From a virus (lineage: Duplodnaviria; Caudoviricetes), in IMG/VR virus record IMGVR_UViG_3300020120_000082, positions 64,001 through 128,000 of that record: a stretch of 64,000 bases of DNA. The stretch is one strand, 5' to 3'. The notes beneath the pieces were generated by a model. It saw nothing but the letters and a program-made list of their open reading frames with translations. It made no database searches and was not told the origin of the DNA. The position numbers and the translations under genes were made by a program. How positions within the stretch are numbered: position 1 is the first letter of the stretch; every line of letters begins with the position of its first letter. Positions 5,046 through 63,054 of the stretch are shown here, piece after piece.

Positions 5046-6923
5046 CTAGTCCTTGACGAAGTAGAGTGCGTTGCGCGATCTCGTATATGCGACATAAATT
5101 ATGTTGCGCTCTTGTTGGACTTCCCAGGGCTGCTTGGCTTTAGCGAAGGGCATTAGATCTGGGCGCAAAATCCAAACTGTATTTGATTCCAGGCCCTTGG
5201 CCCGGTGGACACTCGACAATACAATTTCTCCGTTCTCGTCGCTGAAGATCGAGTCGATCCGTGGAACGATTTGATCGGGCTGATCGCATTCCTGAGCGAC
5301 TGCTTCCAGGGTGTCGATCTTGTCCTGCAAGGCCTGGATTTGAGTCTCGCTGGCGCGTCGGTTTTCCATGCGCGTCATTTCGCGGTTGGAGTAATCTCCC
5401 AGGCGGAAGAAGAACGACTCCATGTCCACGCAACCTGCTGACAGGTTCGCCGCCAGATCGGACAGGTTCTTGCCAATATCCTTGCCACGAATAACCGCCT
5501 TGATGCCCTTGCGGATCAAGCCAAAAGCGACCGGCACCAATGGTGCATTGGTGCGGCAGATCACCATGTCGCCACGCGTAATCAGCCCCTGCATCTTGGA
5601 GATGGTAGTGTCTTCGATGATGCCTTCGGGCGCATTCTCCCTGGCCTCGATCTGGGGGACGATTTCTTTGGCCAGCTTGACATGGCTGGTTGGACAGCGA
5701 TAGGTGATGCTCAGGGGGAGCGTCTGAGCATTGAGCGTGGCTACCAATTTTTGCATGGAGTCAACGCCTGCGCCACGAAAGCCATACAGTGACTGGAACG
5801 TGTCGCCCACTGCCACAATGCGTCCATTGGGTTTGACCGAACGCAGCACAAACTCAGCCTGGTTGTCGCTCAGATCCTGGCTTTCGTCGACGAATAGATA
5901 GTCGAACTGCTTCATGGGCAGTCCCAGGACTATCGGCAACCATTGCATATCGTCGTAATCGATCAGATTGGTGTGATCTTTGGCCGAATCCAAAACTCGC
6001 GGCAGGATCTGCAAGAAATAGTCTTGGTTTTCTTCCAGGTCCAGCCCATAGTGAGCAATCAAGGCCAGCACCTGGCTACGATTGTTGGCATCCGTCAGGG
6101 TGGCCTTGGATAGAGCCGCAAGATTCTTGAATGTGCGGCGGCGGTTATAGAGCTTGGCCCGCTCTTCTTTGGGGAGACGACGCGTCTCTTCAGTGACACA
6201 CAGATCAGAATATGGGCCGAACAGGAATTCCCAACGCCGATCTTCGTCGACGTCAACCTTTCCCAGGGCATCCCGAAGATCTTTGTAACCCAGTGAATGT
6301 AGGGTAGCGCTGTAGCACCACTTGGGCAGGCGCGTCTTCAACTCCGCCGCGATGTGCTTGTTGAAAGCAAAGAAACCGACGTCCAGGCCCTCCATCAGAT
6401 AATCAAACGACTTGAGCCGGACGGGATCACTGGCTTCAAAGATGGCCCGTGCCTCTTTCTCTCCGATCTCTTTCTTGTGAAATGCTACAGACAGCGGAAG
6501 ATACCGAACTGCCTGAACGCTGGTGGATGTTTTCCCGCTGCCCGCACAGGCCTCAACAACCGCATGCCCATCACCAAAAACGATCCACTCGAAGATTGCC
6601 TGTTGATATTTGCTGGGCGTGAACGGCTTGATTTCCTGGACAGGCTCCGGTTCTTTTTGCGCTATGGGAGCGTGCTGAATAGCGACTTCGCTGTCCATGA
6701 CAATGGTGCCGCCCTGGAGAGCAGTCGACTTGCTATTCTTTACTGCTCCAGCGTAAACCGTATGGGTATCTTGATCGTTCGGACATCGGCTATGTCCCCA
6801 TTTGCCGTTATCAAACTTAGTTACCTGCGTTCCGACTGGATATGACTGGCCACACTTAGAACACCGGCCTGGCCACTTACTTGATACTGAAAAAGCCATA
6901 GAGTCCTTTCTAATTTCGATCAC
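5046..6923 (-). CDS. UvrD/Rep-family (SF1) DNA helicase with N-terminal Zn-finger
   Basis: ACAGSGKT, FVDESQD, VGDTFQSLYGFRGA, TYRCP, CRTNA, SVHRAKGLE, YVAYTR. N-terminal CxxC...HxxC. Confidence 0.93.
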   Translation of the reverse strand: MIEIRKDSMAFSVSSKWPGRCSKCGQSYPVGTQVTKFDNGKWGHSRCPNDQDTHTVYAGAVKNSKSTALQGGTIVMDSEVAIQHAPIAQKEPEPVQEIKPFTPSKYQQAIFEWIVFGDGHAVVEACAGSGKTSTSVQAVRYLPLSVAFHKKEIGEKEARAIFEASDPVRLKSFDYLMEGLDVGFFAFNKHIAAELKTRLPKWCYSATLHSLGYKDLRDALGKVDVDEDRRWEFLFGPYSDLCVTEETRRLPKEERAKLYNRRRTFKNLAALSKATLTDANNRSQVLALIAHYGLDLEENQDYFLQILPRVLDSAKDHTNLIDYDDMQWLPIVLGLPMKQFDYLFVDESQDLSDNQAEFVLRSVKPNGRIVAVGDTFQSLYGFRGAGVDSMQKLVATLNAQTLPLSITYRCPTSHVKLAKEIVPQIEARENAPEGIIEDTTISKMQGLITRGDMVICRTNAPLVPVAFGLIRKGIKAVIRGKDIGKNLSDLAANLSAGCVDMESFFFRLGDYSNREMTRMENRRASETQIQALQDKIDTLEAVAQECDQPDQIVPRIDSIFSDENGEIVLSSVHRAKGLESNTVWILRPDLMPFAKAKQPWEVQQERNIIYVAYTRSRNALYFVKD

Positions 6924-7194
6924 AGGGAATATGAATCCACGGTCCCCTGTTTTACGAAATATTCGATTGCCTTACCAACGTGCTGGTCACCTAATTGCGT
7001 GGTTCACTGCCAAGCGGGGAATAGAAAAGAGTCCCATTCGGCGCTGGCTGGTTGGGTTCGTTGCACGCAACGAGGTGGGGTGATTAAGTCCACCGACCAA
7101 GCCAGTCCCGAATAGGACTCTTTGGTTAGTGCGTGCATTTTACCCGATAAAGCTCGCCAAGAAAACAAGGGTAATCAGCCCTACTCGGCAATCC

Positions 7195-58432: not shown

Positions 58433-58843
58433 CTAGGCCAGCTTGTCGAAAACCTGGCTGAGCGTGGAAATGGTGCGCGACTGGATGTAATCCACCCAGC
58501 CGTCATCCATGCAGATGGGGTAATACGTTTCGCCATCGGGCATGGTCCAGGGCTTGGGAATGAAACACACCTGGGGCAGCGACTCGCCCATCCAGCGGTC
58601 CAGGTACAGCTTCCAATAGTCGTTATCGTACCAGTCGATCAGCTTTTCCAGAGTCAGCGGCATGCGGCCCGAGATGGCATGGCCGGAAAAGCGAAACGGT
58701 TCCGGGTCCGGGATTTGCTGGCGATAGCACTCCATGGAGCGATTCCAGTCTTCCTGGTACACCTGATTAGCGTGGTCGATCAACGCCTGCACCTGTCCCC
58801 GATTGAGCAGGATTTCCCCATGCGCGAGCAAAATCTGAGCCAT
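58433..58843 (-). CDS. Hypothetical protein
   Basis: Start MAQILL after AAGGAGA. Confidence 0.7.
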   Translation of the reverse strand: MAQILLAHGEILLNRGQVQALIDHANQVYQEDWNRSMECYRQQIPDPEPFRFSGHAISGRMPLTLEKLIDWYDNDYWKLYLDRWMGESLPQVCFIPKPWTMPDGETYYPICMDDGWVDYIQSRTISTLSQVFDKLA

Positions 58844-58859
58844 TGCAAATTCTCCTTGT

Positions 58860-59060
58860 CTAAGCGGACTCGATCTCGGTCCAGTCCCCAATCTGGAAGT
58901 CGATGCTGGGAATGATGCGCTCAACCAGATGCCCATTGCGATACAGGCCGATTTCGCCATTGGTCCTGGCGCTGGCTTTTTCAGCTTCCCAGGTCTTGAT
59001 GACATCGGGAATGGCCTGGGTATACGGATGATTGTTGCGGACTTGCTTGATGATGACCAT
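58860..59060 (-). CDS. Hypothetical protein
   Basis: AAAGGAGA RBS after the hairpin element. Confidence 0.65.
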   Translation of the reverse strand: MVIIKQVRNNHPYTQAIPDVIKTWEAEKASARTNGEIGLYRNGHLVERIIPSIDFQIGDWTEIESA

Positions 59061-59135
59061 AATGAGTCTCCTTTGCTTAAATGCCAATAGGGCGCTCAAT
59101 TGAGCGCCCTTGGGAATTGCTTTCGATTGCGGGAA

Positions 59136-59315
59136 TTACAGCCAGGCGATGGCGTGTGCGGAGATGAACGCGATGAATTTGTGCTGGCTGTCGGAAAGAT
59201 CATCGAACGTGCCGATGTCCAGCAGATGGCGGAGATTGAGGCTGAGAAACAGACGTGCTTGGCGCAGCAGGGATTGCATCTCCTGTTCGCAGGTAGGCGG
59301 CATCTCGATTTCCAT
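59136..59315 (-). CDS. Hypothetical protein (59 aa, below the ORF-track cutoff)
   Basis: MEIEMPPTCEQ...AIAWL; AAAGGA RBS. Confidence 0.55.
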   Translation of the reverse strand: MEIEMPPTCEQEMQSLLRQARLFLSLNLRHLLDIGTFDDLSDSQHKFIAFISAHAIAWL

Positions 59316-59435
59316 TTCGGTTTTCCTTTCTGGGAATAGTCGCCGGTTATGTTATGCAACCAGGCGGGAGTCTGTTGCTTAAATGCCAATAGGGAGGCGG
59401 ATTCCGTCTCCCTGAATTGGCTTGCCCAGCGGGAA

Positions 59436-59951
59436 TTATTCCCGCCCGCTGCCGATGTTCTTTAGCAGTTCCTTATTGAATGCATCCGTGATTTCGGCAG
59501 TTACTTTGAGGTGGATCATCTCAACGCCACCGGTATTCGACTCGTGCTTGTGGCGAATTGGCGCATCCTTAGAATCGTCCAGAAATATATCCCGCCCGGT
59601 GATAAACGTCATAATCTCTTGGGCTTGTGCTTTCTGATTTTGCAGCAAAAGATTCCCTGCGCGGATTCCCTGGATTGACTCATGCGAGCGAGCGTCCAGT
59701 TTTACATGCCGGTCAATAAATCGGGCCATAGTCCTATAGCCCAATTGGCGCAGCTTGGGAATCAGAATATCCGCCTGTCGGCGGAATTCCTTTCGGATTT
59801 CTTTATCTGTCGTGATACGCCTCACTTGCTTTTCTGGCGTATCGCGATACCGAGTCACCGGGGCTTGATGCTTGGATTTTAGGGTGATACGCCTATCATC
59901 CATTGAATTGCCTTTCATGCCGGGAATTCTAATTTCGTCGTCGAATTGCAT
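59436..59951 (-). CDS. Basic hypothetical protein
   Basis: 171 aa, GGAGG RBS. Confidence 0.7.
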   Translation of the reverse strand: MQFDDEIRIPGMKGNSMDDRRITLKSKHQAPVTRYRDTPEKQVRRITTDKEIRKEFRRQADILIPKLRQLGYRTMARFIDRHVKLDARSHESIQGIRAGNLLLQNQKAQAQEIMTFITGRDIFLDDSKDAPIRHKHESNTGGVEMIHLKVTAEITDAFNKELLKNIGSGRE

Positions 59952-60003
59952 TTTTCGCCTCCCAATGATAAGCGGGGCTTAAAATAAAATGAGCCCCGCT
60001 TGC

Positions 60004-61804
60004 CTCAGCGGGGCTCATTATGTGCGGTTCGCAGCGCGGTATTATGTGCGGGCTCAGCCCCGCTCAGGCTGAGCCCGATTCGGCTGAGCCTCAGCCCGTA
60101 TCATGCGCGGGGCTCAGGCTCAGCCGAACCTTAAACAAAATGAGCCCCGCTCAGCCCGTGTTATGCGGGGCTGAGCGGGGCTCAGGGTATTACAGGCTCA
60201 GACTGTTAGACGTTCGCGGGCTCAGTCTCAGCCCCGACAGACTCAACCTGTGCGGGCTCAGTCTCAGCGGGCTTGCCACTATTGGCCCAAGCCTCAGCCT
60301 CTGGACTCAGCCCATAGCGGTTCGGCCCAGTATCGCGTGTAGTGAATTCAGCCTCAGCCGAACCGAACCGCGCAACGAACCGCAACCCGCCAATTTCGCC
60401 ATTGAGGGCATATGCCCATTTTTCACCCTCAATGGCCCGCTGAAAATTACCGCTCTTGGCGGTATTTTCCGGGATTCGCCATTGATTCGGCCCGTACCTC
60501 AGGCTCAGGGTGACGGTATAGTCTGAGCCCAAAAGGGACGCCTCAGCCTCAGACAAGCTCAGAGTCTCAGCCTTTCCTCGGCTCAGGGTGAAAACCTCAG
60601 CCGAACGGCGTGCCTTGTTTTTCGGGGCCATGAAGCGAACCGAACCGCGAGTCTTGAGACCGGTCTCAGCGGGCCATTTGAGCCCCGCCCCGAACGACAA
60701 GAGCCCCGAACCATCGCGCATATCATCCCGGCCCGTAAACGTCAAGGTTTTTACAACCTTGATGCTAGGGCTCTTGAGGGTGACGAGAACCTCAAGGGGT
60801 TGACTATTGCTCAGGGTGACGGGCTTTTCATCCTTTCCCAACAAAACGAAAACATTTGTGGCCATGCTAGAACCTTTCCGGGCCATATGGCCCTATAAGA
60901 ACGGGGCTCAGCCCCGTTCGGCTTGTCCCCCTCAGGCTGAGCCCGAACCGTATAACCGGGCTCAGGCTCAGCCTGAGAACGACAAGCAAGCAAGAGAGTC
61001 AACCTATACCGCCCCGCTCAGGGTGACGGTACCGCACTACGGCATATTCTCAGCCGAATTTTTCGGGCCAAAAAACGCGGTAAATAATGGCCCTAGTCTT
61101 TGCAAGGGGGAGGTGTAATAACCTCAGGCTCTTGTCAGGCTCAGCCCCAAGAGCGGGCCGAACCTGCGCGGGCCGTTATGCCCCATTCGCCTAGAACGTA
61201 TCTAGGCGATTCGCCATTTTGAGAAGAGCCCCAAAAACTGACTCAACCCTCAGGCTATGCAATAGGTTGTTTTTACCCTCAGCCGAACAAGCCTGAGGGG
61301 GATAGTGCGGGCTTGTCAGAGCCCGGCTGAGCTGTTCGGTTATGGGCCAATAGCCCCGCAAAAAACGCCTAAACGCGGCAACACGGCCCGAACCGCCACT
61401 AACACGGTTCAAGGGTTGCAACGTGCCTAAGCTGAGCGAGAGATAAGCGAACGACATAGCCCGCATTATGCGCGAGGGCTCAGAACCGTTCTAACTTTGT
61501 AACATTCTACGGTTATAACTAAGTTTGAGAGACTGGAAAATAGGCACTATCCGTAAACTTTTGACGCGTGATTGTAACGTTCATTACTAGACATAAGTGT
61601 ACGGTTATACGCATTAAGCGGGCCATTTTGGAAAAACGCGGGGCGTGGCTCAGCCTGAGCGGGGCTTATACTACACTTGTTATAATAGCGTACACTTGTC
61701 AATATACCGCATAGGCGGGGCTCAGCGGGCCGTTATGGGGCGGGGCTGAGCCTGAGCCCATAGCCCGCCATTAACACGCATGGCGGTACCTCAGCGGGGC
61801 TCAG
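60004..61804. repeat. CTCAG/CTGAG-saturated tract at the strand switch
   Basis: About 50 copies by manual count, mostly as GGCTCAG, CTGAGCC or CCTCAG. Confidence 0.9.
60206..60865 (-). CDS. Hypothetical protein embedded in the CTCAG tract
   Basis: Long ORF (alternative start 60886) with GAAAGG upstream; rich in AE/TE/LS dipeptides produced by CTGAG. Confidence 0.6.
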   Translation of the reverse strand: MATNVFVLLGKDEKPVTLSNSQPLEVLVTLKSPSIKVVKTLTFTGRDDMRDGSGLLSFGAGLKWPAETGLKTRGSVRFMAPKNKARRSAEVFTLSRGKAETLSLSEAEASLLGSDYTVTLSLRYGPNQWRIPENTAKSGNFQRAIEGEKWAYALNGEIGGLRFVARFGSAEAEFTTRDTGPNRYGLSPEAEAWANSGKPAETEPAQVESVGAETEPANV

Positions 61805-61979
61805 CGGGCTATTCTAGGGGCGGTTCTAAGGGGTGAAAATGAGCGGATTAGTCCCCCCCTCTTGTTAGCCGACGGAGTCGACATAACGCGGCCTGGGGCC
61901 GTGGTAGTCCCTAAAACAACTTGAGCCTCAAAATTCCCACGTTACATATTCTCCAGCATTTCGCCTGTAAAATAAGCGC

Positions 61980-62603
61980 ATGCGCATTCTGGATCTATTT
62001 TGTGGTGCTGGTGGCTCGGCCTGGGGATTACATCTGGGATTTCCGCTGGCAATAATCGTTGGCGTCGACAAATTCGAGCAGCCGCATTACCCATTCGAGT
62101 TTCACCAGGCGAATGCGATCGATTTTGACCTAAGTGGGTATGATTTCATCTGGTGTTCCCCACCCTGCCAGGCGTATTCACCATTGAAGAGCTTGGCCAG
62201 GAAAGATCATCTGGCGCTGATCGACGTTATGCGGAGCAGGCTGGAAAAGCAGACGACTCCGTATTGCATTGAGAGCGTCTCGGGAGATCCGCTGCATTAC
62301 CCGGTGGTTTTGTGCGGGATGATGTTTGGGCTGGGGACGTACCGGCACCGCTACTTCGAGACCAGCTTCAAAGTAGAACGCTTGAGCCATCCGGGGCATA
62401 AGCGACCGACTCAGGTGCTGGGAAAGCCGCTCAAACCAGACGAGATGATGACCATCGTCGGTCACTTTTCCGGTGCCGCCCAAGCTCGCAAGGCTATGGG
62501 AATTGAGCATTTCATGCCCCAATCCGCTCTTTCCCAGGCCATCCCCCCAGCCTATTCGAAGTACATCGCGGGCTTTATTCCAGTCAAAACCAATTCCAAC
62601 TGA
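61980..62603 (+). CDS. DNA cytosine-5 methyltransferase (short phage type)
   Basis: LDLFCGAGG, FIWCSPPCQ, CIESV (ENV variant), LCGMMFGL..RHRYFE, QAIPPAY. Confidence 0.88.
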   Translation: MRILDLFCGAGGSAWGLHLGFPLAIIVGVDKFEQPHYPFEFHQANAIDFDLSGYDFIWCSPPCQAYSPLKSLARKDHLALIDVMRSRLEKQTTPYCIESVSGDPLHYPVVLCGMMFGLGTYRHRYFETSFKVERLSHPGHKRPTQVLGKPLKPDEMMTIVGHFSGAAQARKAMGIEHFMPQSALSQAIPPAYSKYIAGFIPVKTNSN

Positions 62604-62627
62604 GACGGTTTTCCAAAAAATTATGAG

Positions 62628-62903
62628 GTGTTTCAAATTAGAACGTTGTCACAATTGACATCGCTGTTATTCTCGATTACACTGTCATTCGTGACAACAG
62701 TAAAGCGCAAGTTAGTAATAAAGCTGGTTGATCAAACCAAGAAAGCGGGTGTATCGTTCAGGCAGATTGAGCGAGACACCGGCATTGGCTTGTCGAACCT
62801 GAGCCGGATCAGCCGTGGAAAGCAGCGACCCAGCTTTGAGACGATCCAGGCGCTCTGCAACTACTTCGAATGCACCCCCGGCGATCTACTGAAGATGGAA
62901 TGA
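62628..62903 (+). CDS. XRE/Cro-CI HTH transcriptional regulator
   Basis: SFRQIERDTGIGLSNLSRISRGKQRPSFETIQALCNYFECTPGDLL; the true start may be GTG near 62691. Confidence 0.85.
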   Translation: MFQIRTLSQLTSLLFSITLSFVTTVKRKLVIKLVDQTKKAGVSFRQIERDTGIGLSNLSRISRGKQRPSFETIQALCNYFECTPGDLLKME

Positions 62904-63054
62904 CATGACGCCCATTGTGTTTTTGGTGGCGCTCTTTTTTCTGGCCTGGTCGGCAGGCATGGGAGCGCTGCTGTTTTTGCTGATCAGCAAGTTAGTCGGC
63001 TGGTTTGTGGGTGCTGGTCTGAAGACCAACCGTCTCAAGAAATGGGGCTAAGCT

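Follow-up and report, generated by a model that had tools for sequence, protein, structure and literature searches.

A CTSAG-dense island where two gene arms diverge in an orphan soil phage: a possible REP-like hairpin cassette

Why should about 1.9 kb of a phage genome be saturated with one five-nucleotide word, CTSAG (S is C or G), straight through an open reading frame (ORF)? This question is raised by IMG/VR record IMGVR_UViG_3300020120_000082 (Duplodnaviria; Caudoviricetes). Coordinates below are those of the window, the whole 64-kb stretch of DNA that was analysed, which is bases 64001-128000 of the 138,808-bp record. A preliminary description of the window, made by eye from the letters, proposed that the tract is a specialised DNA element under sequence-level selection. 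The reading that we favour, at a probability of roughly 40%, is that the tract is a cassette of hairpins resembling the repetitive extragenic palindromes (REPs) of bacterial chromosomes, and that it forms a heavily structured early transcript.

The motif excess is large and is confined to one place. The interval 59970-61900 contains 53 CTSAG sites by exact count (41 CTCAG and 12 CTGAG on the plus strand); the preliminary description had counted about 50 by hand in 60004-61804. The rate in the rest of the genome, 1.34 per kb, predicts 2.6 (Poisson P about 1e-49), and every other 2-kb bin of the genome holds seven or fewer. A comparison with a Markov background had been proposed as a check, and the excess is significant both against genome-trained backgrounds (orders 1-4) and against tract-trained ones (orders 1-2). 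The vocabulary is wider than the 5-mer: it includes GGCTSAGCC, GAGCCCCGC, CCGAACC/GGTTCGG, CGGSCCG and GCTCAGGGTGACGG, and its core word is GGCTCAG-S-CTGAGC-GGGG. Elsewhere in the 138.8 kb the only occurrence of these words is one GGCTSAGCC, and outside the tract the classes enriched in it, CTNAG and GGNCC, reach only 0.53 and 0.62 of expectation.

Other measures draw the same borders. An order-3 likelihood ratio was positive solely in 200-bp intervals starting at 59900-61700, with none elsewhere in the genome. The tetranucleotide signature of the tract correlates with that of the genome at r = -0.02, against a median of 0.77 for other windows, and 87 inverted-repeat pairs and 36 direct-repeat families were found within 2.1 kb. 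The tract (59960-61860, with no strand assigned) is a compositional island that obeys rules of its own and has sharp borders; besides CTSAG, it has an excess of GGTTCGG, CGGSCCG and GAGCCCCGC.

Inside the island lies a 219-aa ORF (60206-60865, minus strand) with 18 CTSAG sites in two reading phases. A whole-library HMMER search returned two homologues, one 74% identical (P0001, on Logan contig L005) and one 32% identical (P0003, on Logan contig L006), and the ratio of nonsynonymous to synonymous substitution rates (dN/dS) between the window ORF and that of L005 is 0.26. Judged by its sequence, the ORF is a real gene. When its synonymous codons were permuted with the protein held fixed, 6.1 +/- 1.8 CTSAG were obtained, against the 18 observed, and the ORF of L005 gave the same picture (18 against 6.9). 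By the same permutation GGTTCG (7-8 against 1.4) and CGGSCCG (2-3 against 0.2) are also in excess in the ORF, and relative to the genome its codon usage is skewed to GAG, GCT, CTC, CCC and GGG. The earlier observation that the motif runs on through a coding sequence and overrides it is borne out by these counts. The motif sites themselves show no extra synonymous conservation (19/29 vs 78/123). The codon-permutation excess in both ORFs, together with the slow non-coding divergence described below, supports the proposal that the tract is a specialised element under nucleotide-level selection, one that here overrides codon choice.

The encoded protein is beta-rich; its N-terminal half weakly resembles Big_12 Ig-like repeats and its tail is an acidic PAETEP repeat. 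It has no family match in Pfam, PHROG or NCBIfam, the ESM Atlas held nothing usable for it, and its AlphaFold2 model has a predicted local distance difference test (pLDDT) score of 45. Decayed paralogues of the ORF in the flanks were considered and rejected, the shared words being at most 19 nt long. A perfect 14-bp palindrome, GGGCCATATGGCCC at 60880-60893, overlaps an upstream in-frame ATG (60886). This ATG and the frame are kept in L005, so the ORF may start at either 60886 or 60865.

The preliminary description had named an assembly chimera as something that could account for the tract. This was contradicted by an independent JGI contig (L078, a copy of the same phage), which is 99.93% identical across 58615-61502, and by Logan contigs from four soil runs, which cover pieces of the tract with 0-2 differences. 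The phage sequence is present in soil metagenomes, with no RNA dataset among the sequencing runs listed as containing it, and the related sequences recovered were L005, L006 and the JGI copy. DNA and protein searches found no relative of the phage in the GenBank phage collection. The ORF, its left neighbour, the helicase and a tract 20-mer had no match in IMG/VR, and neither the ORF protein profile nor a conserved 23-mer had a match in JGI metagenomes. A literature search on the motif returned nothing relevant, and most of the phage's proteins lack a PHROG family. The record is linear, has no end repeats and has a CheckV completeness of 88%. Genes run rightward at about 0-45 kb and 126-139 kb of the record and mostly leftward at 45-124 kb. 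These blocks meet at the tract, which is therefore the divergence point of two arms, as the earlier reading had it.

The two relatives show how the signature has been kept. The 74%-identical L005 has 30 CTSAG in 1418 bp, over which GATC and TCGA occur once each and CCWGG not at all. Aligned with the window, it has 15 CTSAG sites in common and 3 that differ by a flip of the central C/G; a further 28 are found in just one of the two sequences and 8 fall within indels, so that motif density is held while single sites turn over. The non-coding leader has diverged at 0.28 of aligned positions, against 0.52 at synonymous sites. The indels are whole hairpins built of tract words, for example the hairpin inserted at 60921-60987 (no strand assigned), which has 29-nt arms and five CTSAG words, is lineage-specific and is absent from L005. 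L006 has no CTSAG excess, with 5 sites in 1878 bp, two of them in its ORF. Instead it is enriched, across spacer, ORF and trailer, in a 7-bp palindrome of its own with a central S, CGGSCCG / ACGGCCC. A comparison with related phages had been proposed as a check on the tract: one relative keeps the motif density and the other has a different palindrome. The spacer of L006 also contains a (CGT)7 run (268-290). The divergent upstream gene in L006 is the same small C5-methyltransferase as in the window, about 850 bp away (its fragment is 54% identical over 26 aa), so the divergent pairing and a spacer of 850-1100 bp between methylase and ORF are kept. Because the gene pair and the long spacer persist in L006, the island must be old and its odd signature maintained.

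What the words have in common is most visible on the leftward transcript. There CUSAG with S flanks, GGUUCGG and CGGSCCG are complementary to themselves and to one another, so that an RNA of about 1.5 kb would be unusually base-paired. Two G·U pairs allow GGUUCGG to pair with CUGAGCC, something impossible on the other strand, and the leftward sense strand is biased towards CUGAG (37 vs 9 CUCAG, P 5e-4) and GGUUCGG (8 vs 1). The leader folds in excess on both strands (z = -6.6 and -7.1), and the two-sequence consensus fold is deeper on the sense strand (-133 kcal/mol, 126 pairs) than on the antisense strand (-116, 96 pairs). Against synonymous permutations, the ORF mRNA also folds in excess in the window (z = -3.6), in L005 (-3.4) and in L006, which lacks CTSAG enrichment (-2.6); neighbouring genes gave -1.0 and +0.3.

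Covariation was scored on held-out data: pairs were predicted from the window strand alone and scored in L005 against a substitution-matched null. On the sense strand 61 of 150 changed pairs were still paired (null 48.4 +/- 5.1, P 0.011), on the antisense strand 32 of 155 (null 36), and the two strands differ (Fisher P 2e-4). Where both sides of a pair had changed, the sense strand kept 18 and broke 14, and the antisense strand kept 7 and broke 20. Among non-coding pairs with a probability of at least 0.8, 9 of 17 were kept against 5.2 expected (P 0.03). Held-out covariation and mRNA folding lend modest support to a predicted structure in the sense-strand RNA. Covariance models from Rfam 15 gave no match at E <= 1 in 58500-63000. 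A CsrB-type sponge RNA was considered and dropped, as the motif is not predicted to lie exposed in loops: CUGAG has a pairing probability of 0.73 by prediction, where all G/C positions give 0.77.

The vocabulary of the tract is shared with bacteria. A tract 20-mer was scanned against one genome per prokaryotic species (GTDB) and was found at 44 places, mostly in Sphingomonadaceae (Novosphingobium, Blastomonas, Qipengyuania), together with a few other genomes that have the repeat's own flank TGTCGAAG. The bacterial matches carry the flank TGTCGAAGSCC and have an inverted partner arm about 20 nt away. They are copies of a palindromic repeat, about 85 nt long and dispersed through these genomes, whose arms read GGCTTCGACAGGCTCAGCCTGAGCGGGG (L129, L130 and L131; genomes G001-G005). 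Its unit has two inverted arms of about 28 nt around a spacer of about 20 nt, and it forms intergenic tandem arrays with periods of 100 and 137 bp. A 17-mer core of the repeat has 22, 13, 88, 18 and 3 copies in five sphingomonad genomes, where its reversed control has none; among further genomes, 5 of 40 from the family contained it and none of 150 other alphaproteobacterial ones.

The core word of the tract, GGCTCAG-S-CTGAGC-GGGG, is the arm core of this repeat; a second word of the tract, GCTCAGGGTGA, corresponds to a different variant of the arm. The ORF contains one of about 13 partial arm-core copies found along the tract, which are 14-22 nt long and 85-100% identical. The exact repeat core (AGCCCCGCTCAGGCTGAGCC) lies at 60056-60075 on the plus strand and forms a perfect 20-nt inverted pair with 61647-61666 on the minus strand, 1571 bp away. 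The clusters at the left and right edges are inverted repeats of each other in several registers. Rfam has no family for the bacterial repeat, giving chance matches to microRNA hairpins only, and a literature search found no description of the Novosphingobium repeat, nor did peptide readings of it return anything relevant.

These observations, taken together with the layout of the locus, suggest what the tract may be. It would comprise the divergent early control region and the first leftward transcription unit of an orphan soil phage, the unit running through a long leader, the 219-aa gene, a hairpin trailer and two terminators. The conserved non-coding leader of the putative leftward transcript spans 60866-61500 (minus strand), is built of hairpins and has 16 CTSAG sites. 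Within it, the block at 61036-61058 (minus strand) is conserved in three lineages and is a candidate extended -10 promoter or RNA hairpin; its stem CGGC/GCCG becomes CCGC/GCGG in L006, a compensatory change, and its loop UGAGAAWAU is kept. A second block, GGGGCATAACGGCCCGC at 61168-61184 (minus strand), has a core, GGCATAACGGCCC, that is conserved in three lineages; beyond the promoter patch, at 61727-61737, this core recurs with its DNA orientation unchanged. The trailer (59952-60205, minus strand) is the densest part, with 12 CTSAG or 47 per kb, and contains a long imperfect inverted repeat (60049-60097 / 60110-60158). A predicted intrinsic terminator at 59988-60019 (minus strand), with a 13-bp stem followed by a U-run, would close the leftward unit just upstream of the ribosome-binding site of the gene at 59951-59436; a second terminator-like hairpin with a U-run lies at 60142-60157 (minus strand).

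The arms diverge at an AT-rich patch (61501-61710, 43% GC, no strand assigned), which had been pointed out in the preliminary description and is confirmed with its repeats: it has two tandem copies of TACACTTGT, 19 bp apart and found here only. By eye these units contain extended -10-like elements on the plus strand, TGTTATAAT at 61678-61686 and TGTCAATAT at 61697-61705. On the plus strand follow a rightward leader with 5 CTSAG in GC-rich hairpin words (61711-61860), the C5-cytosine methyltransferase-like gene, which has Pfam and PHROG matches and is divergent from the ORF (61980-62603, 207 aa), and, as second gene of the arm, a Cro/CI-type helix-turn-helix protein (62628-62903, 91 aa). A promoter-like site on the minus strand (61811-61839) lies to the right of the rightward -10 elements. 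If all the promoter candidates are real, the early promoters would face each other and their transcripts would overlap by about 100 nt. The tract has no tRNA.

In the reading as a hairpin cassette, the leftward unit would be written in the word set of the dispersed Sphingomonadaceae repeat, and its stems may insulate and stabilise the early transcript, as REP hairpins do in bacterial mRNAs. Being G-rich and structured, the leader should offer little access to Rho and RNases. The defined 3' hairpins and the terminators would close the unit, and new words may spread as whole hairpins.

The REP, BIME (bacterial interspersed mosaic element) and REPIN (REP doublet forming a hairpin) families of bacterial chromosomes are the nearest known systems (Nunvar 2010, PMC2817692; Bertels and Rainey 2011, PMC3116915; Di Nocera 2013, PMC3733652). 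REP hairpins stabilise mRNA and terminate transcription, and REPs are extragenic by definition (PMC2817692, PMC3116915, PMC3733652). Like them, the tract has short GC-rich imperfect palindromes in one vocabulary and in alternating orientation, in DNA that is probably transcribed; it has clustered imperfect palindromes of 20-40 nt, and the arms of a real repeat, which sphingomonad genomes carry in 3-88 copies each, have its core word as their core. Unlike them, it is a single locus, dispersed high copy being a property of the bacterial family only. Intact units are missing from it, as is a GTAG or CGTC tag (the bacterial arms show no GTAG tag either), and it is not strictly extragenic, with 18 sites in a gene under purifying selection whose codon pairs they dictate.

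Several points weigh against the cassette reading. The tract contains no intact bacterial repeat unit and lacks the TCGA-bearing arm half. The phage has 51% G+C, against 63-72% at the sphingomonad loci. No Y1 transposase (the REP-associated tyrosine transposase, RAYT; PF01797) was found in the phage or in four repeat-bearing sphingomonad genomes, where control genomes scored, so that 'REP' is used as an analogy. With no intact unit, no Y1 transposase and a G+C content far below that of the loci, a sphingomonad as host or donor is a lead and not a result. On the RNA side, the covariation is modest (P 0.01-0.03) and is absent from the coding part for high-confidence pairs, the informative sequences number just two, and, in the window and L005, the extra folding is in part another expression of the word enrichment. 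CUGAG is predicted to be paired about as much as the G/C background. Seven of the 12 site pairs spaced at exactly 6 bp are direct repeats, and the 13-bp palindromes GCTCAG-N-CTGAGC have no loop, so they would form no RNA hairpins alone and resemble the sites of dimeric DNA-binding proteins.

These last points lead to the main rival, that the CTSAG and GCTSAGC words are protein-binding sites in duplex DNA. In that case the tract would serve the divergent early promoters as a landing pad, a silencer or a decoy. The binder could be either a phage regulator, for instance the helix-turn-helix protein encoded next door, or a factor with which the host recognises the core of the repeat. The 6-bp doublets come in direct (7), inverted (4) and everted (1) form, four loop-less 13-bp palindromes are of the kind typical of dimer sites, and centre C/G flips retain CTSAG. 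Density held despite site turnover is expected if number and not position is selected. GGGCCGTTATG flanks the promoter patch on both sides in the same DNA orientation, with its core kept in three lineages, and the different central-S palindrome of L006, CGGSCCG, looks as if site and binder co-evolve. A symmetric duplex site, however, should not show the strand bias of 37:9 for CTSAG and 8:1 for GGTTCGG, nor covariation on the sense strand only. The 5-bp core confers little specificity, and the tract has no helical phasing, no regular array and no periodicity beyond the 6-bp doublets. No candidate binder was identified, the ORF product being Ig-like, beta-rich and unlike known DNA binders.

Plasmids do have short-repeat arrays of this kind, such as the omega-protein heptads of pSM19035 and the ParR iterons of R1 and pB171. 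The tract shares with these its 5-7-bp words, direct and inverted, at promoters, and a number that outweighs position; the plasmid arrays, in contrast, are contiguous, phased, 50-150 bp long and non-coding, whereas the tract is irregularly spaced over 1.9 kb, is strand-biased and has no known partner protein. We regard a DNA-binding array as unlikely, although it is the competitor to be taken most seriously.

A related but doubtful possibility is that the tract is a cis-acting mimic of the host's dispersed repeat, which would recruit or titrate whatever host machinery, a protein or an RNA-processing activity, recognises that repeat. Selection for mimicry could dictate the codon pairs of a phage gene and would rebuild the array as single sites decay.

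It is equally doubtful that the words are passengers, that is, a mobile hairpin repeat of the host (REPIN-like or like a miniature inverted-repeat transposable element) or the product of template-switch mutations at quasi-palindromes, decayed and functionless in the longest intergenic region of the phage. A dispersed repeat of sphingomonads, tandemly arrayed between their genes, does use the same vocabulary, and whole-hairpin indels, mutually inverted edge clusters and fast turnover of individual sites would all follow. But in two lineages the words shape the codon pairs of a gene that purifying selection maintains, and the non-coding part evolves at about half the synonymous rate. The tract has neither an intact unit nor the TCGA-bearing arm half, and of such words elsewhere in the 138.8 kb one GGCTSAGCC is all there is. 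The long spacer and the gene pair are kept even in the 32%-identity lineage. Morons, which are promoter-gene-terminator cassettes of deviant composition in phage genomes, resemble the tract in its sharp compositional borders, its own terminator and its one small unassigned gene at a module boundary. The deviance of the tract, by contrast, is a 20-fold word enrichment rather than a foreign base composition, and the pairing of its gene with the methylase is old.

The preliminary description drew attention to missing restriction sites, and its intervals match the exact coordinates: the longest gaps of the whole genome coincide here (GATC-free 59514-61992, CCWGG-free 59669-61892, TCGA-free 59941-61878). 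It suggested a first-injected genome end cleared of such sites, or an origin or packaging region. A purge of restriction sites was rejected. The dinucleotides of the tract predict 4.9 GATC (P 0.002), a deficit that disappears at the trinucleotide level, and within the ORF the absence of the three sites is not significant given the protein and its codon usage. Palindromic 4-mers are not extra depleted (median observed/expected 0.65 vs 0.92 for others, P 0.18), and the non-palindromic ACCA, CTGC, CTCC and CTTC are depleted as much as TCGA. The tract has 2-4 times the genome's frequency of CTAG, TTAA and TATA, three words that the genome avoids, and both of the genome's only two GGTACC sites lie within it. 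GATC and CCWGG are plentiful outside the tract and are therefore not under negative selection, and the absence of the three appears to be a by-product of the restricted vocabulary.

Genome-wide, GATC stands at 2.05 times and CCWGG at about 3 times expectation, against an extreme avoidance of 6-bp palindromes: GAGCTC, GCGCGC, GGCGCC, GCCGGC, CAGCTG, CCTAGG, GCTAGC, CGTACG and GGGCCC have no copy in 138.8 kb, and CTGCAG, CCCGGG, CGGCCG, CTCGAG, GTGCAC and CACGTG have one copy each. The 5-mers most under-represented against a Markov background are GAATC (90 vs 184) and GATTC (99 vs 194); GANTC overall is at 0.81 of expectation, so its avoidance is weak as a hint of the host.

There is a small chance that the tract is a genome end, an injection-stop, or a packaging or origin region kept free of restriction sites. 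Its position at the divergence of two arms, near a cumulative GC-skew minimum, its AT-rich patch with numerous inverted repeats and the coincident gaps would fit. So would the example of phage T5, whose first-injected DNA is bounded by a non-coding region rich in repeats; the likeness is a kilobase-scale gene-poor tract with direct and inverted repeats next to early genes, but our tract contains a gene and is built from one 5-mer. The GC skew, moreover, tracks gene orientation, and the contig has no end repeats and places the tract 13 kb from one end. The origin role fares no better: iterons, helical phasing and DnaA boxes were not found in the tract, and the window has no DnaA box TTWTNCACA at all. 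An iteron-type origin was rejected on the absence of both periodicity beyond the 6-bp doublets and a DnaA box, and of a Rep family match for the ORF; the AT-rich patch is the only feature of such an origin that is present.

The methylase next door offers a further reading, for which the chance is very small: that it targets CTSAG (or GGSCC), so that the tract would be an epigenetic switch acting at the early promoters through dense methylation. Many methylase sites likewise have a palindromic core whose central S is free, and the divergent pairing of methylase and cassette is kept in a distant lineage with a different enriched palindrome. Searches, however, found neither a PDB relative nor a named family for the enzyme, and the strand bias would go unexplained. 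Relatives of about 200 aa were found in IMG/VR on at least 71 phage contigs (L007-L077), and a word-dense tract beside the methylase gene is not consistent across these 71 other loci. Two of them are CTSAG-dense (L022, 5870-6290; L021, about 6400-7000), by coincidence, the cause being a pentapeptide-repeat gene. In these high-GC contigs the repeat A[DN]LSxA[DN]L..., with a 15-nt period, lies 1-2 kb upstream of the methylase homologue. The family of about 200 aa has a minimal target-recognition region.

An array of Chi-like sites that stop a host RecBCD/AddAB-type nuclease would suit the clustering, the strong orientation bias and the short G-rich sense-strand word, but is scarcely credible, since centre flips reverse the orientation and are tolerated, 12 of the 53 sites are oppositely oriented, the tract is not near a known DNA end, the rest of the phage has no such words and the counterpart in bacteria has the form of a palindromic hairpin repeat rather than of an oriented octamer.

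For the hairpin cassette, structured early leaders have precedent. Phage early operons have structured leader RNAs, as in lambda nut and HK022 put, and the hairpin-rich leaders of the tract likewise lie downstream of the putative divergent early promoters, in both arms, and upstream of terminators. A boxA-like CGCUCUUG occurs at 61148-61155. The tract differs in having no Rfam match and in being far longer and more repetitive, and nothing in it points to antitermination.

The locus is a clean natural case of a 5-nt word selected at the nucleotide level across both non-coding DNA and a functional gene, in two diverged lineages. An orphan soil phage is tied here to Sphingomonadaceae by shared repeat vocabulary alone, and vocabulary of this sort could serve as a host-prediction signal for orphan phages. 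The bacterial side of the comparison points to an apparently undescribed dispersed repeat family in Novosphingobium without a detectable RAYT. If the mimic reading were true, the tract would be a new kind of phage-host interface. As a REP-like cassette, it suggests that phages can adopt the hairpin words of their hosts for their early transcripts.

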